From NCBI GenBank assembly GCA_000004985.1, contig GG738905.1: a stretch of DNA of 64,000 nt; one strand, written 5' to 3'. The notes under the pieces were generated by a model that saw nothing but the letters and a program-made list of their open reading frames with translations, searched no databases and was not told where the DNA came from. Made by a program: the position numbers and the translations under genes. The stretch's first letter is position 1; each line of letters begins with the position of its first letter. Source of the stretch: Naegleria gruberi. Its lineage: Eukaryota. Shown here one piece after another: positions 3,320-48,693 of this stretch.

Positions 3320-4640
3320 GTAAATCATGCAAGAACCAGTTCTTTGAGATTGAGAATATTGTATTGACAGAATCAAGTACGAAATTATGATAATAGTATT
3401 GGAAAGATGAGTTGATATTTGAATAGTAAATTGAAGTTTAGTTAGGGAAATCAGTTTTCTATCCAAGTTTGGAACCTTACATCCAACTTTTTTGAGCTTG
3501 TTCCAAATGAAAAACTATTCGAAATGGTTTAAATTAGCACCATGGATTGAACTATTCCATCCAACAAAAACAAAAAATGAAAGCAAATCTAATCTTTTCA
3601 ATTGCACTTCTACTTTTACTTGCAGTCCTCTCAGTTCAAGCAAATGACAGCTATCAAGCCAAACCTCCAGTCGTCGTTGTTGACAAGTATCACAAGCCAA
3701 AGCATTGTAAGAGAAAATGCTTAAAGCATAAGTGGATTAAGAAGTGTTTAAAACACAAACTCGTTGGTCAAAAGAAAGTCTGTGATCAATATGCCATTGT
3801 CGGAGCTGGTAAATGTCTTAAACATAAGAAATATTCCAAATGTGACAAGTATAGCAAGCCAACAAAGAAGTGTGTCTTGCATGCATACAAGATTGTTGGT
3901 TGTGCCAAGAAGAAGTACTGGAAAGTTTGTGATTCTTATGGAACAAAGAAGATTTGCATCAAGAAGGGTTACAAGAAATACTGTGCCAAACATAAGATTA
4001 TTAACAAGTGTTTCAAGAAGGGTGTTAAGAAGGTCTGTAAGAAATTCAAGAAGGTTCCAATCAAGAAATGTGAAAAGAAGAAGGTTTGCGACAAGTACAC
4101 TGTTGATTCCTACAATAAGAAGGTTTCCAAATGTAGATATGTTAAAAAATGTAAGATTGTTTCATGGGCAAAGAAATGTGCCAAGTATAAGAAGGTTAAA
4201 TATTGTAAGGAAAGAAAATCAGTTAAGAAATGTTGTCTCATTAAGAAGAAATACTGTGCCAAACATAAGACTATCAAGTTCTGTAAGCACAAGAAGATTC
4301 TTTCTAAATGTGTCAAATATCAAAAGAAGAAATATTGTGCCAAGACAATTGTCATTCCTCCAAGATGTATCAAGAAGAAGTATTATAAGAAGTGTTTGAA
4401 ACGTTCAAAGGGAAAGAAGATTTGTAAGAAATTTAAATTAGTTGGTGGAAAGAAGAAGTGTTGCAAGTCAATCAAAAAGAAGATTTGTATCAAGAGAAAG
4501 ACATGTAAGAAGTCATCAAAGCCAATCATCAAACCATCTTTGTAAATGATTATTTTCAAATGTTTCTAATACCTTAATAAAGCCAGAACCATTCTGCAAA
4601 CTCTTATTGCAAACAAATTTCAAGAAATGTTGGAAATCCT
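3320..4640. repeat. left arm of a ~1.3-kb inverted duplication; its partner is at ~41540..42905
   Basis: The reverse complement of 41540..42905 matches this segment. The match covers the gene and ~200 bp of flanks on each side, with a few indels in the flanks. Confidence 0.8.
3577..4545 (+). CDS. secreted, extremely Lys/Cys-rich basic protein (copy 1); the ORF is open from 3547
   Basis: A signal-peptide-like MKANLIFSIALLLLLAVLSVQA is followed by ~310 aa with about 30% Lys and ~38 regularly spaced Cys (KKC/CxK periodicity). A near-identical copy lies inverted at 41629..42600. Confidence 0.6.
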   Translation: MKANLIFSIALLLLLAVLSVQANDSYQAKPPVVVVDKYHKPKHCKRKCLKHKWIKKCLKHKLVGQKKVCDQYAIVGAGKCLKHKKYSKCDKYSKPTKKCVLHAYKIVGCAKKKYWKVCDSYGTKKICIKKGYKKYCAKHKIINKCFKKGVKKVCKKFKKVPIKKCEKKKVCDKYTVDSYNKKVSKCRYVKKCKIVSWAKKCAKYKKVKYCKERKSVKKCCLIKKKYCAKHKTIKFCKHKKILSKCVKYQKKKYCAKTIVIPPRCIKKKYYKKCLKRSKGKKICKKFKLVGGKKKCCKSIKKKICIKRKTCKKSSKPIIKPSL

Positions 4641-4750
4641 ATAGAAGTGAGTTCATTTGGAACAAGCTTCAATTAAACAATTTAAAATCAATTGTATAAG
4701 ATTAAGGTACTATTTTCATTATTAAGGTACTATTTTTACTATGAATGAGA

Positions 4751-4822
4751 TCCCGTGTAGTCCAATGGCTAGGATACCTGGCTTTCACCCAGGAGGTCCG
4801 GGTTCAATTCCCGGCATGGGAG
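4751..4822 (+). tRNA. tRNA-Glu (anticodon UUC)
   Basis: TCCCGTGTAGTCCAATGGCTAGGATACCTGGCTTTCACCCAGGAGGTCCGGGTTCAATTCCCGGCATGGGAG folds as a cloverleaf, with a 7-bp acceptor stem, a GGTTCAATTCC T-loop and anticodon TTC. A downstream TTTT run follows. Confidence 0.9.
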
Positions 4823-5324
4823 GGTCCTTTTGCATATCTTTTTACCAGGCAAGGAATGTAAAACAGTTAAATTTTGAAGTAAACTTCTTGATACAAGTAA
4901 TATTTTCAATGTACCAACCTTCTCATCTTTACTCTCAATGAGCCTAACACCAAGTCTTTCACTTGCCCAATTGAATGCAAGCCTCACACAAAGAAAACTT
5001 GCTTCTCCTCCATGAATGGCCTATCAAAAGTACATACTTATCCTTCAAAGCATGGAAAATTAATTATGGAGACGGGAGCTTGGACCTTCACGTGATACGT
5101 GATGGTGGTTGCTGCCACTAAAACAATTCAAAGGGAGCCTACTTTGATTTTTCACAGTATTTTAACACTTCTTTGATTGAATTGTAACAGTATGTAAATA
5201 AATTAAATTAATCCTAAAAACATAAAATTTTTATGATTTCTTATGAAATGTTAAATGTTAATAGTAAGAACCAGAGTGTGACCAGAAAATATAATATCTT
5301 AGTGGTTGTTATTGTCACATTTCA

Positions 5325-5402
5325 ATTATTATTTTGGACGGGAAGCCTGCCAGGAATATGGCAACAATCCCGCTACAGTCTTTGACTGTATGAACAGTGA
5401 AG
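5325..5402 (+). repeat. conserved ~75-bp element R2, copy A; the second copy is at 41178..41253
   Basis: GACGGGAAGCCTGCCAGGAATATGGCAACAATCCCGCTACAGTCTTTGACTGTATGAAC is ~90% identical between the copies. It contains an ACAGTC-TTT-GACTGT hairpin and resembles the 3' part of 5S rRNA (GGGA..CC.GCC.GGAATA...GCT..AG.CTTT). Both copies sit near tRNA-Glu genes. Confidence 0.5.
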
Positions 5403-5579
5403 GCAACTAATCTATTGATTGTTGGTTCAGTAAGTTATTGTTTAGAAAAGCTTGCTACGTGACCATCTATTTATCACCTTTAAATTTGATCTAATTAGAA
5501 AGAAACTTGTGGTTGATCAATAAACGATAAAATTTCGAATTTGAGTCTTCAAATATTGAAATAGTGTTCAAGATTAAAA

Positions 5580-5664
5580 GACTCAGCACCACAGGTTCCC
5601 AAGTTGTCTCCAACCTCAGTACTGATGTGGCTCGACGATGCTTAACTTCTCAAATCGGACGGGA
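5580..5664 (-). ncRNA. 5S rRNA-related sequence, 5'-truncated copy A (pseudogene or 5S-derived element)
   Basis: On the minus strand, GAAGTTAAGCATCGTCGAGCCACATCAGTACTGAGGTTGGAGACAACTTGGGAACCTGTGGTGCTGAGTCTTTT aligns without gaps to the last 74 nt of eukaryotic 5S rRNA at ~68% identity. This covers the loop E AGTACT, GGAGAC, TGGGAA and GGTGCTG segments and ends in a T-run. The 5' ~35 nt of a real 5S (GCCxACGGCCATACC...) are absent. Confidence 0.55.
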
Positions 5665-5784
5665 TGAGGTGCACTAAATTTATTAATAGAAACATGTCAT
5701 TCCAAAATTGTAAAATGATTAGCAAATCTAGGTTTCGATATTTTGAGGAAGGGGAAGTCTATTGAAACTTTATAATCTTGCTTA

Positions 5785-6264
5785 TTACTTGTTGTAAATA
5801 TTTTGTAAACACTTAATTCCATACTCAAATATTCCTTCAATAGCTTGTTGCCATTTCTTTCCTTCACCATGAGGACATGTAAATTCTGCCTTCCATTCCA
5901 ATAATGTGTTATCGAGCTTATCTGTTCCATTTGTAGTGATTGACTTTACTGAAATAGTTGCAAAGTAATCATTATTATATCCCTCCCATGGGATACCATC
6001 AACTAGAGAGTAGGTGTATGAAGAATTACGTAAATCCATGGCAATTAATCTTTCACGTTGAACAATACCATTTTTCATGGTGAGCTTTCGAATACCTCCA
6101 ACAGTATTATCCGATTGATTATTGTCCATTTCACTGCTGGCAACAGTATCATACCAAGTTGGTAAACCATTGAAAGAACCAATCAGTGACCAAACGGTTG
6201 ATGCACTAACATTTGGAATAACTCCACTCACATACACGTTAACAGTTTCGAATGCTCTTGACAT
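5785..6264 (-). CDS. SRPBCC / Bet v1-like (polyketide cyclase-dehydrase family) small protein
   Basis: 159 aa with the pattern typical of PF10604-type proteins (W..IG.F..LP.W...V.S.E ... GGIR.L....G..V.ERL...D.....Y.Y.L.DG.P...Y.....V.). Confidence 0.4.
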   Translation of the reverse strand: MSRAFETVNVYVSGVIPNVSASTVWSLIGSFNGLPTWYDTVASSEMDNNQSDNTVGGIRKLTMKNGIVQRERLIAMDLRNSSYTYSLVDGIPWEGYNNDYFATISVKSITTNGTDKLDNTLLEWKAEFTCPHGEGKKWQQAIEGIFEYGIKCLQNIYNK

Positions 6265-9626: not shown

Positions 9627-12600
9627 TTATAAATCTAAATTTTGATTTGTTGGCCCTATCATTACAGATGGCTTGTTGCAAGCTTTTTCCATGATTTCTT
9701 TAAACCATAGTTCTTCCCTTACATTTTCAAAATCCTTGTCTTCTCTCAATTTCTGTTCTGACACGATATCAATGCAAGCCATTAATTCATTCTTGCATTC
9801 TTCCTTCTTATTAAAAATAGCGTTTAAGCAGGCAAGATTGTAATGTGAGAGAGAAGTGTTTTTGAGACACTTGAATCCAACTTTTGCTCTTTCGTATAAA
9901 TATTCAAGATTAGAATTGACTTGCTCAGGTGTACCAATTGTAGATGTTACTGCTCTCTCTCCATTCTTGATTTCATTCAAAATAACCTCTGCCTTCATGA
10001 GGAAAGCTATGGCACATCTACAAATACATCCATCATTATTAGGCTCCAATATCATTGCTTGTTCATATTGAGCTATCGATTGTTCAAGTAATTGATATCT
10101 ATCCATACCCAGCTCTTCTTTCGACTCTTGAAGCAGCATATTACCATAATTGTTTCTAGCAATAACAAAATCTTTGATCTCAATGCATCTTCTAAATAAA
10201 TCACATGCAATATCTACAAGTCTTTTTCTTTCAATGTTGGTTTCCATCTCTTGTTCTCTAGTTAGTTTTAAGGAATGTTTTCTGACTTTTAAAAGATCAA
10301 TTTTTAACTTCTCATTAAAGCCCTTGTTATTAAGTGCATGGAAGTATTCAGGTTTGATATTGAGGCACTTGTCATAAAGCTTGGAGCTTTCATCAAGATA
10401 ACCATCAATCACTTTTCTTTCTCTTTCAAATTCATCATATGTTAATTCTTTCAAATCAGTAGATGTGTAAAAACCCGAAAGCAGTGAACAATATGGGAAA
10501 AAGTTTGAAAGAGGAAGAGGAGTCGATGAGAAACCAATACCATTGCAAGGAGTTTTTGGAGACTTGCTACCTGAGTCAACTTCCAAGTGAATATGTGCAC
10601 CTTTTTTGAGGATTGAAGTAGATATTTTCAGCCTTTTCTTGAGGTGACGAATCTTTTTTTCTGCCCAATCACAATAACTAATTCCATAGTCGTTATAAGT
10701 ACCAATGTGAGATTTGATCTTGAGAGCTTCTTCAAACTTTTCATGAGCCATTCTGAATAATCTATCACTCAAGTCCATGTCTGCAACCTTAATGGCAATG
10801 TCACTACAAGTACCAGCCCATAGTGTCAATACCTCATCATTCTTTGGTGCATTTTTCATGCAAACATCAAACTTTTCCATACATTGATTCAACATGAAGG
10901 CCAAATAAAGTTGTGCCTCATTTGTTTTCAAGTTGTGAACAAGCTTCTCCAATCTGATCAGAGATACACACCAATTTCTTGCAGCCGTCCAATTCTTGTC
11001 ATTATACATGAGACATGTTTCATAATTGTCCATACAGAGCATCCATAACATTCTCTTCTTGTAGACATTGTTGGCCTTGTCAGCTGCATTGAAGAGATTG
11101 TTTGCTTTTCTGAGGAATTGTGTCGACTTGTTCTTGATCTTTTCTTCCTCTTCCTTCTTTTTCCTTTCATCCTCTTCTTTTTGAAGCTTTTCTATTTCTT
11201 CTTTTGTTGGAGGTTTGATTTCTGTTTGCTCATTATTGGTGGCTTGGCTCTCTTTCTGAGATAGGTTACTTTGATCCTGCTTTTGATTATCGTTCTGTGT
11301 TGGTGGAGGCACAGCTGCTGTAGATGAGGAAGAAGGTGTTGCTGCATTAGTTGTTGTCTGATCAGTTGGTGGTGGAGCAGTAGGTGCTGTGTTAGTTGTG
11401 GGTGTTGCTGAATTGGATGGTTGTTCTGGTGGAGTTGGAGGTGGTAAGAAAGTCTTCTCATAGATGATTCTCTTCTTGTGAACATATTTCCATGTTACTT
11501 GTTCGCCATAGACTGCATCTTCATCATCTTTTTGGTCTGACTTTGAGCTGGAGGTCATTGAAATATTACGAAGCATATTCTTGTAATAAGAAAGGTCGTA
11601 CGCCTGTTTTTCATATCTACTCTTGTAAAGGTTAAACCACAAAAAGTCGTAATTACTCAATTCATTAAACTTCCTTGATGTGAGAGAAACATCAGCCAGG
11701 GCCTTTTCGTCAAGATATTCGAATATCTTTAGTAAAAGTTCTGTAAGAATGTAAGCATTTTCATTGTGTAACGAAGAGGCAACTTGTCTAATGCTACTAA
11801 TCCATTGTAGTGTTTCACTCTCATTGGTTGCTTCAAAAACAAGTCTATCCTCAGCTATTGCGTTGGCAGTAATTGATTCATATTTCATATCTGTACAGGT
11901 CATTTCTTCATCAACGTTTGGTGAATACGAAGGTGATGCATTCTCTGATCTACTTGTACCATCTGTTGGTGGAGATTTACAACTACTTTCCCAATGCATC
12001 TTTACACATTGAGTATCATTGTCGTTATTGATTGTTTTTTCATTCGATTTTTCTATGTACACACTAAAGGTGGTAGATGAAAGAGGATCTACCAAAACTT
12101 TACCAAGACAAACTCTATCATCCAAATAGATGGTACCAATCAGATGAGCAGAATACTTATCACAAATTGGTATCACATTGTTGGTAATAGCCTGGTTGGT
12201 ATTTGAAATATCACTCAAAGACTGCAGTAATTGTTGTTGTTGTTCTACTTGATTCTGATAGAAAGAGTTGTCAAAGAGTTTAGGAGTGAAAAGTTGTATC
12301 TTTTTAGAGCTCAGTATACAAATAACTGGCTCTTTCATTTGCAATCTGTCAATATGAGATTCTGGACAAACTTGGTAGTGGTGGAACATTAGATAGCCTT
12401 GCTTTCTAATGGTTTTGTTTGGTGTCTTCATCTTTTTCTTTCTCATTTCTAGAGGCTTGGTTTGATTGAGGTCTTGAGGAGATTCTACACTTGTATCCAT
12501 CGAGTCAGCATGGAGGGAGGTTTGTATTATTGTACAGTTATTATTGTTCTGATTATTTAGGGAGGATTGGAGAGAAAAGGTTTCAAGTGCTGATAAACGT

Positions 12601-12719
12601 CTCTTCAAGGGATGATTCAACACTAAAGATTTGATAACGTCTTGTTGTGAAGGAGATTGTCGAGTGATTGTCTGCTGATTATTATTGAGCAGGGACGATG
12701 AGCTTGGAGGAGGTGTCAT
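9627..12719 (-). CDS. large F-box-like protein (1030 aa) with low-complexity Pro/Thr/Gln tracts
   Basis: An F-box-like segment LTELLLKIFEYLDEKALADVSLTSRKFNELSNYDFLWFNLY lies mid-protein. It is a single long ORF, and the rest is not recognisable. Confidence 0.45.
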   Translation of the reverse strand: MTPPPSSSSLLNNNQQTITRQSPSQQDVIKSLVLNHPLKRRLSALETFSLQSSLNNQNNNNCTIIQTSLHADSMDTSVESPQDLNQTKPLEMRKKKMKTPNKTIRKQGYLMFHHYQVCPESHIDRLQMKEPVICILSSKKIQLFTPKLFDNSFYQNQVEQQQQLLQSLSDISNTNQAITNNVIPICDKYSAHLIGTIYLDDRVCLGKVLVDPLSSTTFSVYIEKSNEKTINNDNDTQCVKMHWESSCKSPPTDGTSRSENASPSYSPNVDEEMTCTDMKYESITANAIAEDRLVFEATNESETLQWISSIRQVASSLHNENAYILTELLLKIFEYLDEKALADVSLTSRKFNELSNYDFLWFNLYKSRYEKQAYDLSYYKNMLRNISMTSSSKSDQKDDEDAVYGEQVTWKYVHKKRIIYEKTFLPPPTPPEQPSNSATPTTNTAPTAPPPTDQTTTNAATPSSSSTAAVPPPTQNDNQKQDQSNLSQKESQATNNEQTEIKPPTKEEIEKLQKEEDERKKKEEEEKIKNKSTQFLRKANNLFNAADKANNVYKKRMLWMLCMDNYETCLMYNDKNWTAARNWCVSLIRLEKLVHNLKTNEAQLYLAFMLNQCMEKFDVCMKNAPKNDEVLTLWAGTCSDIAIKVADMDLSDRLFRMAHEKFEEALKIKSHIGTYNDYGISYCDWAEKKIRHLKKRLKISTSILKKGAHIHLEVDSGSKSPKTPCNGIGFSSTPLPLSNFFPYCSLLSGFYTSTDLKELTYDEFERERKVIDGYLDESSKLYDKCLNIKPEYFHALNNKGFNEKLKIDLLKVRKHSLKLTREQEMETNIERKRLVDIACDLFRRCIEIKDFVIARNNYGNMLLQESKEELGMDRYQLLEQSIAQYEQAMILEPNNDGCICRCAIAFLMKAEVILNEIKNGERAVTSTIGTPEQVNSNLEYLYERAKVGFKCLKNTSLSHYNLACLNAIFNKKEECKNELMACIDIVSEQKLREDKDFENVREELWFKEIMEKACNKPSVMIGPTNQNLDL

Positions 12720-20964: not shown

Positions 20965-21060
20965 AAATTAAAAATGAAAAATCTAGAAAAAAATGGGTAT
21001 TAATCTGAGGTTATTTAAAAAATAGATACACATCTTCAGTGTCTAAATTTTGAGAATCAA
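20965..21060 (+). repeat. short conserved element X, copy A; a direct copy lies at 27890..27975
   Basis: AAAATGAAAAAT...GGTAT(T/C)AATCTGAGGTTATTTAAAAA..ACACATCTT(C/A)AGTGTCTAAATTTTGAGA is ~85% identical between the two loci. Both lie just outside the tRNA-Gly inverted pair. Confidence 0.5.
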
Positions 21061-21139
21061 CTACCATCTAATGGTTACTACATACTATTCAAAAATTGAG
21101 AATGGACATTGAAAGTTGGATGAAAGAAAAAGAAGCGAC

Positions 21140-21210
21140 TGCGTCGACCGGGAATTGAACCCGGGTCACGGCGATGGCAACGCCGTATTCTACCACTAAA
21201 CCATCGACGC
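21140..21210 (-). tRNA. tRNA-Gly (anticodon GCC)
   Basis: The minus strand reads GCGTCGATGGTTTAGTGGTAGAATACGGCGTTGCCATCGCCGTGACCCGGGTTCAATTCCCGGTCGACGCA. It is identical to the copy at 27614..27684, and ~50 bp of 5' flank and ~80 bp of 3' flank are also inverted-repeated. Confidence 0.9.
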
Positions 21211-21344
21211 TTCACATTTATTTAGAATGTAACCTTAATTCGACACTAAGGGGATCGCTTTTATGTATTTATTTATTGAAAATTAAAATCTAAAAGCATA
21301 TGTGAAAAAACTCAAAACCTTATTAATTTCAATATTAAAGTTTT

Positions 21345-27031: not shown

Positions 27032-27613
27032 ATTTGTATTCTTTTAAGATGATTGAGTTAGAGGCATTATTAATTGTAGGCCAATCATCGAGGCAAGTTT
27101 CTTCAATATAGTTGTCAAATGAACACTATGAAGTATTACACTTGAGGTTAAGGCGCATTTCCTTCAACAAAAAAAACAACTCAAAATAAACACTTTAACA
27201 TGAAGTTCTCAATTTTGGCTCTTTTCCTGTACTATTTGTCTGCTCACTCTATTACATTAGAAAAAGACAGTTCTTAACTGATGCTTTGTGCCACATTACG
27301 GCAATTGCTAATACTTAGACCTACTCTGAATATATATTTATTGTGAATTGATTGCATTACAGTTCTATTGTAAAGATCAATGGCACTGTAATCAACAGTC
27401 AAATTTATCATCATTTATGGGTATGGCTGCAATGTGGATTACAATATCAACTAATAAGCAGTTTATATTCTCCATTATGGATATTATATTATATAATATT
27501 TGGATTGGATGATTGAAGGCGCAAAATAGTTTACCTTATCCGAAAAATTAAAGTAACTGGTAACTTCGTATCCCTTAGTGTCGAATTAAGGTTACATTCT
27601 AAATGAATGTGAA

Positions 27614-27684
27614 GCGTCGATGGTTTAGTGGTAGAATACGGCGTTGCCATCGCCGTGACCCGGGTTCAATTCCCGGTCGACGCA
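27614..27684 (+). tRNA. tRNA-Gly (anticodon GCC), inverted partner of 21140..21210
   Basis: It has the same 71-nt sequence as the minus-strand copy, followed by a T-run (TTTTTCTTTC). Confidence 0.9.
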
Positions 27685-28433
27685 GTCGCTTCTTTTTCTT
27701 TCATGGTCCATTCTCAATTTTTGAATATCATGTAGGAACCGTTTGAGGGTAGCTTGTGCCTTAGATGACTGATTGTATGGAGTAAAAAAATTCTTCTCAT
27801 TTTTTTTTGAAATCACAAATATTAGCATATTATGATTCCTTTTTGGACTAATAATTCCATTTACTTTTAATTAAAACCATTTACTCAATAAAATGAAAAA
27901 TTCAGTAAAAAAATAGGTATCAATCTGAGGTTATTTAAAAATCAACCACACATCTTAAGTGTCTAAATTTTGAGATAATTGATCTAAATTGTTTTATCCT
28001 TCCTTTTGTTATGATAGAGAGATGGTCTTACTCGCCTCGCATATTAAGCATGGATTACGAATGTTTGATCCAAAATTCAGATAATCCAATAATTGCATTG
28101 GAATATTTGAAAAATCACGCCGACAAATAATATGACTTGGATAAGGACTTGTTTAATTTGAATTTCGTTATCAAAGCAGTGGATCTTAATTCAGAAGTTT
28201 TTGACGTAGTATAATTTCTATCAAAACGATCCTAGTGTCATGCTGAAAGCAGCTTTTGGAGGTGGTCCTAATGTAAAAGGTTTATGTAAGATTAAGGATT
28301 TCACTCTTATCAAGAAGGTAATGAAAGCGAATCCACTCGCTCTTAAAAATTGTAAAGAAATTCAGATAAATGGGCCCACTAGCTCATAAAAGGTAGAATT
28401 ATATCAACACAAGAATTTTAACATAAATGTGCT

Positions 28434-41025: not shown

Positions 41026-41177
41026 TTTATTGGCCAAACAACAGACAACTACATGAAAGCAATAACATACAAATGTAAATATTAATTTTTACACGTAATT
41101 ACATAGGAATACATTCAATTAGAGTATCCACACGAAATGAAGCAAAAAGATTAGATGTACATGGTTTGTTATTTCAC

Positions 41178-41253
41178 TTAATTATTAGACGGGAAGCCTG
41201 CCAGGAATATGGCGACTGTCCCGCTACAGTCTTTGACTGTATGAACTGTGAGG
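41178..41253 (+). repeat. conserved element R2, copy B
   Basis: The same sequence as 5325..5402, here ~200 bp upstream of the second tRNA-Glu. Confidence 0.5.
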
Positions 41254-41456
41254 TACGTCGTCTTTCGAGTCAGTAAGAGAGAGTGATTGGAGAAAGAGAG
41301 GATGAGTTAGTTCATTTATTGATTTTGAAATTGATCACCTAGATAAAAAGTATTTTGGGTAAAAAAATTCATAAATTGATCTCTAAGATATTGTTGACAA
41401 TAAGGCAAGACATCCGTTATTATAATATTAGGGAAATATTAAAATCAGTAGTGAGA

Positions 41457-41528
41457 TCCCGTGTAGTCCAATGGCTAGGATACCTGGCTTTCACCCAGGA
41501 GGTCCGGGTTCAATTCCCGGCATGGGAG
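41457..41528 (+). tRNA. tRNA-Glu (anticodon UUC), second copy
   Basis: Identical to 4751..4822 and on the same strand as that copy, even though the neighbouring Lys/Cys gene is inverted. Confidence 0.9.
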
Positions 41529-41539
41529 GATGTTTTGCC

Positions 41540-42905
41540 TTTTAATACCGACTTGCATCCTTTGTTGAAATTGTTTTGCAATAAGAGTTTGCTTTATTAA
41601 GGTATTATAAACATTTGAAAATAAGTATTTACAAAGATGGTTTGATGATTGGCTTTGATGACTTCTTACATGTCTTTCTCTTGATACAAATCTTCTTCTT
41701 AATTGACTTACAACACTTCTTCTTTCCACCAACTAATTTAAATTTCTTACAAATCTTCTTTCCCTTTGAACGTTTCAAGCACTTCTTATAATACTTCTTC
41801 TTGATACATCTTGGAGGAATGACAATTGTCTTGGCACAATACTTCTTCTTTTGATATTTGACACATTTAGAAAGAGTCTTCTTGTGCTTACAGAACTTGA
41901 TAATCTTATGTTTGGCACAGAAGAATTTCTTCTTAATGAGACAACATTTCTTAACTGATTTTCTTTCCTTACAATATTTAACCTTCTTATACTTGGCACA
42001 TTTCTTTGCCCATGAAACAATCTTACACTTTTTAACATATCTACATTTGGAAACCTTCTTATTGTAGGAATCAACAGTGTACTTGTCGCAAACCTTCTTC
42101 TTTTCACATTTTTTGATTGGAACCTTCTTGAATTTCTTACAGACCTTCTTAACACCCTTCTTGAAACACTTGTTAATAATCTTATGTTTGGCACAGTATT
42201 TCTTGTAACCCTTCTTGATGCAAATCTTCTTAGTTCCATAAGAATCACAAACTTTCCAATACTTCTTCTTGGCACAACCAACAATCTTGTATGCATGCAA
42301 GACGCACTTCTTTGTTGGCTTGCTATACTTGTCACATTTGGAATATTTCTTATGTTTGAGACATTTACCAGCACCGACAATGGCATATTGATCACAGACC
42401 TTCTTTTGACCAACGAGCTTGTGTTTTAAACACTTCTTAATCCACTTGTGCTTTAAGCATTTTCTCTTACAAATTCTTGGCTTGTGATACTTGTCAACAA
42501 CGACGACTGGAGGTTTGGCTTGATAGCTGTCACTTGCTTGAACTGAGAGGACTGCAAGTAAAAGTAGAAGTGCAATTGAAAAGATTAGATTTGCTTTCAT
42601 TTTTTGTTTTTGTTGGATGGAATAGTTCAATACATGGTGCTAATTTAAACCATTTCGAATAGTTTTTCATTTGGAACAAGCTCAAAAAAGTTGGATGTAA
42701 GGTTCCAAATTTGGATAGAAAACTGATTTCCCTAACCAAACTTCAATTTACTATTCAAATAATATCAACTCATCTTTCCAAAACTATTATCATAATCTCA
42801 AGGACTTGTTCTTCCATGATTTACGACCTTGTACATTTTTTAACTAAGGTATTATAGTAATTTCGAATAATTTGATTATTTATTTGATTCTGTCAATACA
42901 ATGCT
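41540..42905. repeat. right arm of the ~1.3-kb inverted duplication; partner of 3320..4640
   Basis: The reverse complement matches the left arm. The gene copies differ by a handful of substitutions and one 3-nt indel. Confidence 0.8.
41629..42600 (-). CDS. secreted Lys/Cys-rich basic protein (copy 2)
   Basis: About 98% identical to copy 1. The differences are N->S, KHCK->RICK, a KKYCAKHKTIKF->KKFFCAKHKIIKF indel, and I->T. Confidence 0.6.
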   Translation of the reverse strand: MKANLIFSIALLLLLAVLSVQASDSYQAKPPVVVVDKYHKPRICKRKCLKHKWIKKCLKHKLVGQKKVCDQYAIVGAGKCLKHKKYSKCDKYSKPTKKCVLHAYKIVGCAKKKYWKVCDSYGTKKICIKKGYKKYCAKHKIINKCFKKGVKKVCKKFKKVPIKKCEKKKVCDKYTVDSYNKKVSKCRYVKKCKIVSWAKKCAKYKKVKYCKERKSVKKCCLIKKKFFCAKHKIIKFCKHKKTLSKCVKYQKKKYCAKTIVIPPRCIKKKYYKKCLKRSKGKKICKKFKLVGGKKKCCKSIKKKICIKRKTCKKSSKPIIKPSL

Positions 42906-45037: not shown

Positions 45038-45262
45038 TCCTTCTCTAAAAAGTAGTTTATCTGAATGAAAGAATTCAATTTTGATATGAGTTTTCATCCT
45101 CTTCACTATCGCTTTCACTCCAACTAGATGCTTTAATATCTCCTTTGTATCGTTTTGAGTAAATAACAAGGATAGTCGTTCAAAGATTTGTTGAAACCTT
45201 TCACAGTCGACCTTTACATTACTTATCAAACAGTTGACAATACAGTGTAAGATAATCACTGA

Positions 45263-48200
45263 TTGACAAGTTACGGAATGATAAAAAAATACTCATCAAA
45301 TGCACTCTATTTCGCGAATGAAACTTTTAAAAACGATAGAGATGCAATATTAACAGCAGTAAAAGAAAATGAGTTTGTACTCCAATATGCTAATGAAACA
45401 TTGAAGAATGATAGAGAATTTATTTTGGAAGCTGTAAAGATAAATGGAAAAGTACTCCAATACGCGAAGGAAATATTTAAAAGTGATAGGGAAATTGTGT
45501 TGGAAGCTGTTAAAGATGATGGATTAGCACTTGAATATGCCAATGAAATTTTAAAACATGATAGAGAAATTGGATTGGAGGCCGTAAAAGAAAATGCCGA
45601 AGCATTTCTTTATGTAAATAACACATTGAAAAAAGATAGGGGACTTGTATTGAAAGTTGTTAAACAAAATGGAATATTACTTCAATATGCAAATGAATTA
45701 TTGAAAAAGGATAGAGAAATTGTGTTGGAAGCTGTTAAAGATGATGGATTAGCACTTGAATATGCCAATGAAACATTAAAACAAGATAGAGAAATATCTT
45801 TAGAGGCTTCAAAACAAGAATTTTATAGAGGAATTATTTTAGAATCTAATATAAGATATACACCGAATCTTTTTTACGCTTTTAATAATTATATCGAATT
45901 TAAAAATTTGAGAAACGATAGAAAATTTATATTAGAAGCTGTAAAACAAAATGGATTAGCTCTTGAATATGCTAATGAAATAATGAAAAGAGATAGAGAA
46001 ATTGTATTGAAAGCTATTCAAGAAAATGGATTAGCTCTTGAATATGCAAACGAGACATTGAAAAAAGATAGAGAAATTGTGTTGAAAGCTGTAAAACAAA
46101 ATGGATTAGCACTTGAATATGTTAATGAAATAATGAAAAAAGATAGAGAAATTGTATTGAAATCTGTTAAGAAAAATGGAAAGCCGTTTCAATATGCAAA
46201 AGATACTTTGAAAAATGATAGAAAATTTATTTTGGAAGCTGTTCAACACAATAGAGATATATTTTTATATGTAAATGCAATATTGAAAATGGACAGAGGG
46301 TTTATTTTGCAAGTAATCAAAAAAAATAGAGATGTGCTTGAGTGTGCCGATACGAGTTCAGTTTATTACGACACAACCTTAAGTTATTTACTTTGCAATG
46401 ATACAGTTCTGGTTTATTTACTTTCTAAACATAATCCAGAATTATCCAGAAAGTTTTCACCACAATTAACTCAGATTATTGATGAATCCAACAATCTAAA
46501 CGCCAAACTATCCAAAGATGTGATTGAACTATACTCAAAACAGCTCAACTCTGAAAATGATTTGTATTATTGTATTGAATTACCAAATGTAGAGCCAGAC
46601 AAATCGTTAACCCCGCATTGGTTCTCTTTCAAACCAACCTATTCAGTAGAATTTATTGAAAAATTGGTTATATTTCAAATATTGAAAAAAGTACAAGAAA
46701 TGGAACCATCAAATGATATTTTCAACGGTGAAACTACTAACTATAATTTCTTTTGTTTCAAGTTGGATAAACTTCTGGAAGAAACTTTAATTCAACCAAA
46801 AACTGTCAAAGATTTGAGGAATACTGTTGAGAGTATTTCATCTAAATTCGATACATCATTTTACTCCAAAAAGGAAATCAAGTGCATCAGGTATTTTTTC
46901 ATAACATGGACAGAAAGTGACAAATCTTTTACTGACTACAGGAGGATATTGTCAAGATATAACGAAAAACATGGTGATCTGTCAAAAATATTCAAAGCTC
47001 TCAATAGATACTACAAATATTTCAATAAGAATTACGACTTTATTTCAATATTAGGAAACGGTGCAGAAGGGGCTGTTTTCAAAGTATTACACAGAGAAAG
47101 TAGAACGTTGATGGCTATCAAATTCAAATATGAAGTAGAAGATAGCGAAGAATCAACAAATGAAATTATTAACTTATTGAAACGAACAGATATGTGTGGA
47201 AAGATAAAATGTTTTGATTGTGGAATGATTGAAAGACATTTATATTCAGTAATGGAATTGGGAGAAGAATCTCTATCAGATTATATTCAGGCAAATATTG
47301 AAGTTTATAGAAATTCATCCATGATGACTAAAGAGAAATTAATTGAAATCCTGCGAATATTTATGCAAATATTAGAATCTGTTCAGTCCATCCATGATCA
47401 CAACATTTTACATGGAGATTTAGATCCGCAAAATATTGTCAAAGTTGGAGATCAATACAAACTAATTGATTTTGAAACTTCCAAAGTAATCAAGACAGGA
47501 AATTCAATTACAATTGCTCGTGGAAAGTTTGCATACATGTCTCCTGAAGTTTCACATGATAATTACACTGATGACATGTTTAAAAGAAATAATGATTCTA
47601 AATTAGCTCATAACATTGGAAATATTACAATCTCATGTGATATTTTTTCATTGGGATGTATTTTATTGAAATTATTAACACATTGTCCATTACAATTAGA
47701 TGAGCACTTTGTTAATGATTCTGATTTATCAAAATATAAGGATAATTTCATTTATTTCACAACCTATGGAAAGTATTTCTATACGGTTGTAACAACAAGT
47801 GAAGGGGAAACCAAATTACACTATGCCATCGAACAACTGATCAACAAATCAATTGATACAAATTATGGAGTGAACAATATATTAATCAGATGTATTATTA
47901 CAATGATTCAAAGAGATTCTTCCAAAAGATTGTTTTGTTATTCATACAAAACAACTCTTGAGAATGTAATTAAATTTTTGAATGGAGAAATTGAAATATC
48001 AAACATTGAGATGGACATCAAGCAGTATAAGGAAATAAAATCCTTGATGAGTTACTCTCGACTTTTGGAAGAAATCAACAAAGTGAATCAGAGAAATGAT
48101 TTCTTGAATGAAAAAATTAAACATCTTGAAGATGAAAACAACAAATTAAATCAGGAAATCAACAAATTACATCAGAGAAATGACATATTGATGGAAAATA

Positions 48201-48280
48201 ACAAATTGAATCAGGAAAATACAGAATTGCAAGAGAAAATTAAAATATTAGAGGAACAAATTAGAAAACTCCACTTTTAA
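45263..48280 (+). CDS. DUF4116-type repeat protein fused to an atypical protein kinase domain and a C-terminal coiled coil
   Basis: Roughly 14 tandem repeats of ~30 aa of the form LxYAxExLKxDREIVLEAVKxNGxAL. A kinase domain follows: GNGAEGAVFKV...AIKF, a catalytic loop HGDLDPQNIVKV, DFE in place of DFG, and MSPE. A heptad-rich tail KLNQEINKLHQRND ends the protein. Confidence 0.55.
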   Translation: MTSYGMIKKYSSNALYFANETFKNDRDAILTAVKENEFVLQYANETLKNDREFILEAVKINGKVLQYAKEIFKSDREIVLEAVKDDGLALEYANEILKHDREIGLEAVKENAEAFLYVNNTLKKDRGLVLKVVKQNGILLQYANELLKKDREIVLEAVKDDGLALEYANETLKQDREISLEASKQEFYRGIILESNIRYTPNLFYAFNNYIEFKNLRNDRKFILEAVKQNGLALEYANEIMKRDREIVLKAIQENGLALEYANETLKKDREIVLKAVKQNGLALEYVNEIMKKDREIVLKSVKKNGKPFQYAKDTLKNDRKFILEAVQHNRDIFLYVNAILKMDRGFILQVIKKNRDVLECADTSSVYYDTTLSYLLCNDTVLVYLLSKHNPELSRKFSPQLTQIIDESNNLNAKLSKDVIELYSKQLNSENDLYYCIELPNVEPDKSLTPHWFSFKPTYSVEFIEKLVIFQILKKVQEMEPSNDIFNGETTNYNFFCFKLDKLLEETLIQPKTVKDLRNTVESISSKFDTSFYSKKEIKCIRYFFITWTESDKSFTDYRRILSRYNEKHGDLSKIFKALNRYYKYFNKNYDFISILGNGAEGAVFKVLHRESRTLMAIKFKYEVEDSEESTNEIINLLKRTDMCGKIKCFDCGMIERHLYSVMELGEESLSDYIQANIEVYRNSSMMTKEKLIEILRIFMQILESVQSIHDHNILHGDLDPQNIVKVGDQYKLIDFETSKVIKTGNSITIARGKFAYMSPEVSHDNYTDDMFKRNNDSKLAHNIGNITISCDIFSLGCILLKLLTHCPLQLDEHFVNDSDLSKYKDNFIYFTTYGKYFYTVVTTSEGETKLHYAIEQLINKSIDTNYGVNNILIRCIITMIQRDSSKRLFCYSYKTTLENVIKFLNGEIEISNIEMDIKQYKEIKSLMSYSRLLEEINKVNQRNDFLNEKIKHLEDENNKLNQEINKLHQRNDILMENNKLNQENTELQEKIKILEEQIRKLHF

Positions 48281-48388
48281 TCATCAATAAATAGTTCCTT
48301 TTAAGTTTTGTATCTATTTACAACAAAAGTTGCTATGTATTTTCATCCCGATAACAACATCAATATACATTGATATCAGTTATTGTAT

Positions 48389-48461
48389 TCCCCCTTAGCT
48401 CAGTCGGTAGAGCGTCAGACTGTTAATCTGCAGGTCGGTGGTTCGAGCCCACCAGGGGGAG
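48389..48461 (+). tRNA. tRNA-Asn (anticodon GUU)
   Basis: TCCCCCTTAGCTCAGTCGGTAGAGCGTCAGACTGTTAATCTGCAGGTCGGTGGTTCGAGCCCACCAGGGGGAG, followed by T5. Confidence 0.85.
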
Positions 48462-48505
48462 ATATCTTTTTCGTTTTCAAATATGAGACAGAACTATTTT
48501 AAAAA

Positions 48506-48585
48506 GACTACAGCACCACAGGTTCCCAAGTTGTCTCCAACCTCAGTACTGATGTGGCTCGACGATGCTTAACTTCTAAATCGGG
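48506..48585 (-). ncRNA. 5S rRNA-related sequence, 5'-truncated copy B
   Basis: Nearly identical to 5580..5664 over ~85 nt. Homology to copy A and to 5S begins at the same point (CCCGATTT.AGAAGTTAAGCA). It lies 45 bp downstream of tRNA-Asn on the opposite strand. Confidence 0.55.
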
Positions 48586-48693
48586 AGGAGTTATCTTTTA
48601 GTACAGTTTTCTTGATTAAGAATTTTTGAAGCTGACAAGTTTATCTTTACCTTTGCACAAGTATCAATTAAGACCAAAAAGCTGTCAAAAAAA

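Follow-up and report, generated by a model that had tools for sequence, protein, structure and literature searches.

Two 5'-truncated 5S rRNA gene copies in Naegleria gruberi are probably paralogous pseudogenes of a dispersed gene family

What is the nature of two 5S rRNA-like sequences that lack the 5' part of the gene and lie about 43 kb apart in a gene-dense region of the Naegleria gruberi genome? The window, i.e., the whole stretch of 64,000 nt that was analysed, carries both sequences on the minus strand. A preliminary description had placed them at 5580..5664 and 48506..48585, assigned them a common truncation point, and favoured a dispersed family of 5S-derived repeats, such as a SINE or retropseudogene, with a split 5S gene as the alternative. 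We find that both are non-functional relatives of the organism's own 5S genes and that a local DNA duplication is the somewhat more likely background for their similarity.

The window has a base composition of 29–37% G+C, is gene-dense, and contains eight intron-less tRNA genes. A 1030-aa ORF at 9627..12719 (−) encodes an F-box protein that clusters with N. gruberi XP_002671488.1 at the 90% identity level and shares 57–58% identity with proteins of N. fowleri and N. lovaniensis. The gene upstream of the first 5S-like sequence (copy 1) also points to an ordinary nuclear context, with its stop codon 113 nt away on the same strand:

5785..6264 (−): gene for a Polyketide_cyc2/SRPBCC fold protein, 100% identical to an N. 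gruberi predicted protein

The only paper on Naegleria 5S organisation that we found (PMC3369914) counts 279 5S hits dispersed over the N. gruberi genome, none of them linked to the rDNA unit. According to its Table S1, about 260 hits have a length of 117 nt and a few are shorter, with eight hits of 80–88 nt genome-wide. Two rows of this table, scaffold_61:101584-101671 (88 nt) and scaffold_61:144509-144592 (84 nt), are spaced by 42,925 nt, and the copies in the window are 42,927 nt apart. Because of the matching spacing and the protein identity, we equate the two pairs. Copies 1 and 2 are therefore almost certainly already part of the published list, where they figure as low-similarity 'putative 5S rRNA genes' and truncation is not mentioned.

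As a reference we used a full-length 5S gene on a metagenome contig (L004 539..657), which stems from a close relative and not from strain NEG-M. It was found by a metagenome scan with a 21-mer from the core common to both copies, is 119 nt long, and reaches 106 bits on the Rfam model RF00001. The assignment to a close relative of the sequenced strain is based on the adjoining ORF, which is 86% identical to N. gruberi XP_002676052.1. Six-frame translations of 5S, applied as a protein query, additionally retrieved full-length 5S genes from N. lovaniensis (for example, L009 10102..10220) and other Naegleria-like contigs with 100–105 bits, and no more truncated copies. N. lovaniensis-type genes carry a compensatory exchange in helix V (CUGCA/UGCAG vs. 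CCACA/UGUGG), which is absent from the window copies; judged by sequence, the latter are of the gruberi type. Full-length Naegleria 5S genes from four loci have unrelated flanks and no upstream sequence in common. Yeast and human 5S sequences share ~70% identity with the full-length Naegleria gene, and the earlier estimate of ~68% identity to eukaryotic 5S rRNA is thus about right.

The reference locus was the single useful result of the metagenome scan for family members, and scans of viral contigs and of prokaryote genomes yielded 0 matches each. A match on L005, a GC-rich contig with no Rfam 5S hit, was rejected as apparently due to chance. Another GC-rich metagenome contig carries an internal 5S-like fragment (L003 1085-1135 (−), GAAGTTAAGCATCGTCGAGCCCGGTTAGTACTTGGATGGGTGACC) that is unrelated to the window copies, has no recognisable 5S 5' or 3' end, and gives no Rfam hit at E < 0.01. 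The 5S translation query also picked up a dense 2.4-kb array of RNA genes from an unrelated eukaryote in a marine metagenome (L010 1-2448), comprising the 3' end of an LSU rRNA, eight tRNA genes, three tandem 5S genes, U5, and part of U2.

Compared to the reference gene, both copies lack nt 1 to ~24–28 and retain the 3'-terminal three quarters, down to the terminator:

5576..5672 (−): copy 1, probable truncated 5S pseudogene, 5S nt 25–119 (blastn, nhmmer, Rfam)
48501..48590 (−): copy 2, probable truncated 5S pseudogene, 5S nt 29–119 (blastn, nhmmer, Rfam)

In blastn, copy 1 matches nt 25–113 of the reference with 100% identity over 89 nt (5672..5584). It carries one lesion, a 1-nt deletion near the 3' end (the bracketed T of GCTG[T]AGTCT), and terminates in a T4 run at 5576–5579. 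Copy 2 matches nt 47–119 with 100% identity over 73 nt (48577..48505) and terminates in a T5 run at 48501–48505. Its nt 29–46 read CTCCTCCCGATTT-AGAAG, whereas the reference reads CTCATCCCGTCCGATTTGAGAAG, which amounts to one substitution, one 4-nt deletion, and one 1-nt deletion. An nhmmer profile built from four full-length Naegleria 5S genes aligned with copy 1 over positions 22–113, starting at 5675 (E = 2.5e-32), and with copy 2 over positions 29–119, corresponding to 48590..48505 (E = 4.5e-26). The start of copy 2 at nt 29 follows from this profile alignment and is statistically confident only from nt 39–47, as 5S similarity upstream of CCGATTT is not significant by itself. Each copy thus comprises loop E, helices IV and V, the 3' strand of helix I, and the T-run, to which copy 1 adds helix III and loop C. 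When the two copies were compared in re-examining the preliminary description, the 73-nt core (nt 47–119) was identical between them; blastn places the 1-nt deletion of copy 1 after nt 113, and apart from this deletion nt 47–119 equal the intact gene in both.

These results bear out that 5S-derived sequence is present on the minus strand in both places, and the AGTACT, GGAGAC, TGGGAA, and GGTGCTG blocks and the T-runs were seen in both copies as described. The intervals given earlier do cover 5S homology, but fall 5–8 nt short at the 5' side. A shared truncation point could not be upheld: the starts are 4–7 nt apart, or up to ~15 nt on a conservative reading, and hence close, not identical. 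The mutual identity had been put at ~95%; over the original intervals we count 79 of 86 aligned columns (92%), with indels accounting for every difference and zero substitutions.

As the preliminary description had suggested, RF00001 (gathering score, 38 bits) was run on the window: copy 1 was hit at 5578..5699 (−) and exceeds the gathering score with 56 bits, and copy 2 was hit at 48505..48611 (−) and falls slightly short of it with 36.7 bits. The outcome that would have spoken against a 5S origin, i.e., no significant 5S hit, did not occur for copy 1. For comparison, intact Naegleria-type 5S genes score 100–106 bits. Both alignments nominally cover the whole model (positions 1–120 for copy 1), with non-standard pairs in helices I and II, numbering three and four, respectively, in copy 1. 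The sequence that the model recruits at the 5' side of copy 1 is the following:

5673..5699 (−): non-5S sequence in place of 5S nt 1–24 of copy 1, forced by Rfam into helices I and II

Upstream of G25, similarity of copy 1 to 5S nt 1–24 is no better than that of shuffled sequence (p = 0.66). A full-length but divergent 5S gene at copy 1 was rejected, as the upstream 24 nt are not 5S-like and helices I and II do not form. The 5' region had been described as missing, and indeed the GGCTACGGCCATATCACGATGAAA segment is absent in both copies and throughout the window. No occurrence of ACGGCCATATCACG was found in the window with up to 2 mismatches, 5S nt 1–29 had no match with up to 3 mismatches on either strand of the 64 kb, and neither blastn nor the four-gene profile gave any 5S match in the window beyond copies 1 and 2. 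We could therefore also reject a 5' half displaced by an insertion or encoded nearby, for which the pattern, blastn, and profile searches of the whole window came back empty.

With nt 1 to ~24–28 lost, helices I and II and the three-way junction cannot form, and consequently no functional 5S rRNA can arise from either copy. Folding predictions agree: an intact 5S gene yields −40.9 kcal/mol (z = −2.7) and a three-way junction, whereas RNAs from the truncated loci yield −26.7 and −22.2 kcal/mol (z = +0.3 and +0.7) and form the helix IV/V arm alone, with no helix I. A function as 5S rRNA genes is therefore excluded for copies 1 and 2. That both copies cleanly lack the 5' segment is the only point that would favour a split or fragmented 5S gene, with nt 1–24/28 encoded elsewhere and joined or paired in trans, or an assembly artefact that cuts a normal gene. 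We regard this as highly improbable. No 5' piece exists on either strand of the 64 kb, the hundreds of intact 117-nt genes reported for the genome make a split gene unnecessary, and copy 2 bears internal damage. We also consider an assembly artefact unlikely, because the sequence around both junctions is unique and gene-dense and the neighbouring genes are ordinary; moreover, repeat collapse would yield a chimeric full-length gene rather than a truncated one. The split arrangement offered as an alternative in the preliminary description is thus not supported within the window.

The surroundings of the two copies were compared next to each other. The upstream flanks are unrelated right up to the junction. 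On the 3' side, the blastn match between the copies runs on beyond the T-runs to 5540 and 48468, respectively, and thus includes a short shared tail; on the side of copy 2, this tail is followed by a tRNA gene:

5540..5575 (−): 3' flank ('tail') of copy 1, from the blastn copy-to-copy match
48468..48500 (−): 3' flank ('tail') of copy 2, with homology to that of copy 1
48388..48462 (+): tRNA-Asn(GTT), detected by ARAGORN; 67.9 bits on the Rfam tRNA model

Both tails contain, in register, a motif of ~25 nt, CT[A/G]T[T/C]TC(A)ATATTTGAA[G/A]AC. They are ~80% identical over these 25 nt, and their first 10 nt are unalignable. The local score of the tail alignment is 12, compared to 7.3 ± 1.5 for shuffled sequences (p = 0.014–0.03). 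Among real 40-mers that follow T-runs in the window, 0.7–1.1% score as well, and 0.1–0.4% do so in register; an end-anchored global alignment is weaker (p = 0.06). This tail was not found in full-length 5S genes from other loci. The tRNA-Asn(GTT) gene is convergent with copy 2, with ~40 nt between the 3' ends. The tail of copy 2 abuts the tRNA terminator, and its A-rich end is the reverse complement of the T-run terminator of the tRNA.

Three further blocks are duplicated between the neighbourhood of copy 1 and the region that starts at 41.1 kb:

5286..5505 (+) vs. 41145-41349: duplicated block of 220 nt, 69% identical, with a core (5334-5400) that is 93% identical
4711..4833 (+) vs. 41418-41538: tRNA-Glu(TTC) block, 86% identical, with most differences in the short flanks
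3369..4638 (+) vs. 41550-42812 (−): Lys/Cys-rich ORF block, inverted duplicate, 95–98% identical

The blocks have neither the same order nor the same orientation in the two neighbourhoods, and 5.7 kb separate copy 2 from the other duplicated blocks, for which reason later rearrangements must be assumed. Comparison with other genomes was uninformative for dating the copies, as synteny is broken both in N. fowleri, where neither tRNA nor 5S occurs within 10 kb of the F-box locus, and at the cyc2 locus of a relative. There, a Sec5-like gene, which the window does not contain, comes after the homologue of the cyc2 gene, and no truncated 5S element adjoins this homologue.

Several features of the window were observed in addition. 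The Lys/Cys-rich ORF encodes 332–333 aa with a signal-peptide-like N-terminus and matches no Pfam family; the similarity of its copies by far exceeds that of the other blocks shared by the two neighbourhoods. Another local duplication is centred on a Pol III gene: tRNA-Gly(GCC) genes make up a 133-nt inverted repeat (21061-21252 / 27572-27752; 99% identical, 6.3 kb apart), and diverged repeats flank them, including 20969-21055 / 27889-27975. Furthermore, tandem repeats of 75 nt at 45233-46339 fall inside a 1005-aa ORF (45263..48280), where they encode DUF4116 repeats (eight matched stretches) upstream of a protein kinase domain.

The conserved core of the 220-nt block, which we refer to as D7, caught our attention in its own right. 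D7 is an element of ~65 nt at 5334-5400 (+), ~180 nt from copy 1, and at 41185-41251 (+), with the sequence GGACGGGAAGCCTGCCAGGAATATGGC..CCCGCTACAGTCTTTGACTGTATGAAC.GTGA. Its two copies in the window are 93% identical and are embedded in blocks that are only ~69% identical. Two hairpins are predicted for D7 (z = −3.8 to −4.7), for which Rfam has no matching family. On a related Naegleria contig, a homologue with 80% identity (L008 1812-1883 (−)) lies ~570 nt upstream of a full-length 5S gene and shows two compensatory pair changes in hairpin 2. A motif, ATTTC(A/T)(A/C)TT, is conserved ~20 nt upstream of D7. Altogether, D7 looks like a candidate for a small RNA gene that has escaped annotation and is linked to genes of the Pol III type, and it may be of more interest than the truncated 5S copies.

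Homology to the organism's own 5S gene at the E-values given above, incompleteness, and the inability to fold are the usual marks of truncated 5S pseudogenes, and both copies display all of them. We therefore consider it likely that copies 1 and 2 are paralogous 5'-truncated pseudogenes of the dispersed nuclear 5S family of N. gruberi. That both go back to a single origin is a narrower claim, which we hold to have slightly better than even chances. The series of events would have started with one partial copy that comprised 5S from about nt 25 to the terminator and ~35 nt of 3' flank. Such a copy could have come from a partial duplication or rearrangement at the DNA level, with a breakpoint inside a 5S gene, or have arisen as a 5'-truncated copy. 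It would then have been duplicated locally between 3.4–5.7 kb and 41.1–48.6 kb of the window, in the same mosaic duplication that also took the tRNA-Glu block, the structured 65-nt element, and the Lys/Cys-rich ORF. We favour this local event because two of the eight short copies in the published list lie 43 kb apart beside duplicated blocks. The ~25 nt of 3' flank in register and the three other shared blocks likewise make related copies more likely than independent truncations, in line with the earlier suggestion. Against a single origin, the shared tail is short and moderately significant, and the 5.7 kb between copy 2 and the other blocks require extra rearrangements. As the upstream flanks have no homology, the duplicated unit would have to end at or near the truncation point; this equally fits two independent truncated copies.

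After the duplication, the flanks would have diverged to ~65–70% identity or past recognition, while the 5S core stayed identical. The 73-nt core shows zero substitutions although the flanks are ~30% diverged, and many would be expected if it were neutral and equally old. The core likewise equals the functional gene of a relative in which the protein encoded next to that gene shows 14% divergence. A perfect core could be maintained if the ~260 intact family members acted as donors in ectopic gene conversion, since conversion is commoner in the middle of a tract than at the edges of homology. We invoke it solely because of the contrast between the perfect core and the diverged flanks; the lesions do sit at the tract edges only (the 3'-terminal deletion of copy 1 and nt 29–46 of copy 2). 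A very recent origin of the copies is an alternative explanation for the perfect core, in which case the similarity of the tails would be fortuitous or derive from related source genes. Both relics may still give rise to unstable Pol III RNAs with a foreign 5' end. Such transcription is plausible, as the match to the internal control region and the terminator are intact and full-length 5S genes share no upstream sequence: by position, the classical internal control region falls within nt 47–119, and AGTTAAGC conforms to the A-box consensus of PMC3369914; this match and the terminator both lie within the perfect stretch.

Other origins of the copies have to be weighed against a local duplication. 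Reverse transcription of read-through Pol III transcripts from one or two related source 5S genes, starting past the weak T4–5 terminator and stopping near nt 25–29, with integration at two sites, would produce independent 5'-truncated retrocopies. The abrupt start of homology inside the gene next to unrelated upstream flanks is what such a process would leave behind, and 5' truncation with an unrelated upstream flank, a trait of LINE-type retropseudogenes, is displayed by both copies. Homology that runs ~35 nt beyond the T-run and then stops would also agree with it, as would a core that equals the functional sequence, as expected of young copies, and the observation that full-length members have only the transcribed unit in common, which would fit RNA-mediated dispersal. 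An 8-mer, AAAAGATA, is found directly upstream of copy 2 and again at the end of the tail homology; however, this candidate target-site duplication is A/T-rich, and copy 1 has no convincing one. Neither copy carries an A-rich tail, the 3' ends after the T-run reading AATCTTGAAC... and AAAATAGTTC... and not poly(A). Tails of ~80% identity next to 5S parts of 100% identity are odd for two young copies of one source, and although the 41-Mb genome has only a handful of truncated copies, two of them lie 43 kb apart beside duplicated blocks, which favours local DNA duplication. Retroposition of the copies is thus possible on the sequence evidence, but as an account of both loci we rate it as unlikely. 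The idea of dispersed 5S-derived repeats accordingly survives only in part: the copies are non-functional, 5'-truncated derivatives of a dispersed 5S family, for which retroposition is possible and unproven, and a SINE is not supported, given that the 5' end of 5S is missing, the unit stops at the gene's own terminator, and an A-rich tail is lacking.

The perfect core could also reflect selection on the truncated units themselves, be it for binding of the Pol III machinery as a boundary or decoy, or for a 5S-like RNA with a variant 5' end. Zero substitutions in 73–89 nt next to flanks that are ~30% diverged or unalignable would suit this reading, as would the position of the consensus A-box match and the terminator in the perfectly conserved stretch and the proximity of both copies to Pol III genes (tRNA-Glu and tRNA-Asn). 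We nevertheless think it improbable, because conservation exceeds the classical internal control region, extending to nt 98–119 and, in copy 1, to nt 25–49, and because the predicted RNAs have no stable fold beyond helices IV and V; conversion or youth would be simpler. The three lesions in copy 2 and the one in copy 1 do not suit selection either, and no such element adjoins a homologous gene in a relative, although synteny is broken there. Nearly as doubtful is that the 80–88-nt class as a whole, with its eight published loci including these two, represents a small propagating unit that reaches from nt ~25 to the terminator and a short tail. Such a unit could rely on its intact Pol III control region, with identity to 5S kept by gene conversion or by use beside tRNA genes. 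It would then constitute an undescribed type of 5S-derived element, characterised by an architecture of 3' part plus terminator and not by a SINE head.

The copies can be compared with several known systems. Functional Naegleria 5S genes (the reference gene and L009 10102..10220) resemble the copies in the T-run terminator and in their setting between protein genes near tRNA genes; the copies are identical to the functional sequence over nt 25/47–119, but lack nt 1–24/28 and, with them, helices I and II. In SINEs derived from 5S, like zebrafish SINE3, a 5S part with its 5' end forms the head, and an unrelated body and tail come after it. Cassandra TRIM elements carry 5S inside the LTR (bioRxiv 10.1101/2023.07.14.548913). 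Like the window copies, both types of elements are 5S-derived, keep the internal Pol III promoter region, and lie outside 5S genes. In contrast to the copies, whose unit ends at the 5S terminator, they possess the 5S 5' end, and they occur in many copies with target-site duplications, whereas the window has two and at most ~eight of this length class are listed genome-wide. Mammalian 5S retropseudogenes are dispersed, non-tandem copies of the transcribed unit only, in which 5' truncation is possible. They differ from the window copies in that the latter have no A-rich 3' tail and no clear target-site duplication; moreover, the shared 3' flank and the neighbouring duplicated blocks of the copies point to copying at the DNA level.

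A close parallel in kind comes from dispersed 5S families of filamentous fungi, in which truncated 5S pseudogenes are common according to the statement in PMC5555474 that cites Rooney and Ward 2005. Filamentous ascomycetes including Neurospora are examples, with birth-and-death evolution of the genes (Rooney and Ward 2005, as cited in PMC5555474, where Selker et al. 1981 is cited as well). As in Naegleria, the fungal genes are multicopy with unrelated flanks, and a minority of copies are incomplete, cannot fold, and are classed as pseudogenes by these criteria. Naegleria belongs to a different supergroup (Heterolobosea). Fungal pseudogenes are often heavily mutated, whereas the retained part of the window copies is perfectly identical to functional sequence, and, unlike the fungal pseudogenes, the window copies appear to be local duplicates of each other.

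Taken together, the two copies are probably ordinary pseudogenes of a known dispersed family, and probably local duplicates, rather than a new kind of element. The practical value of this result lies in annotation. Copy 1 passes the Rfam gathering score as an apparent full-length 5S gene, yet cannot encode 5S rRNA, and the published list apparently includes both loci among the putative 5S genes. Since neither can encode 5S rRNA, estimates of the 5S copy number in Naegleria should exclude such hits. Beyond annotation, the perfect core within diverged flanks provides a small hint that ectopic gene conversion may homogenise the dispersed 5S family of Naegleria.
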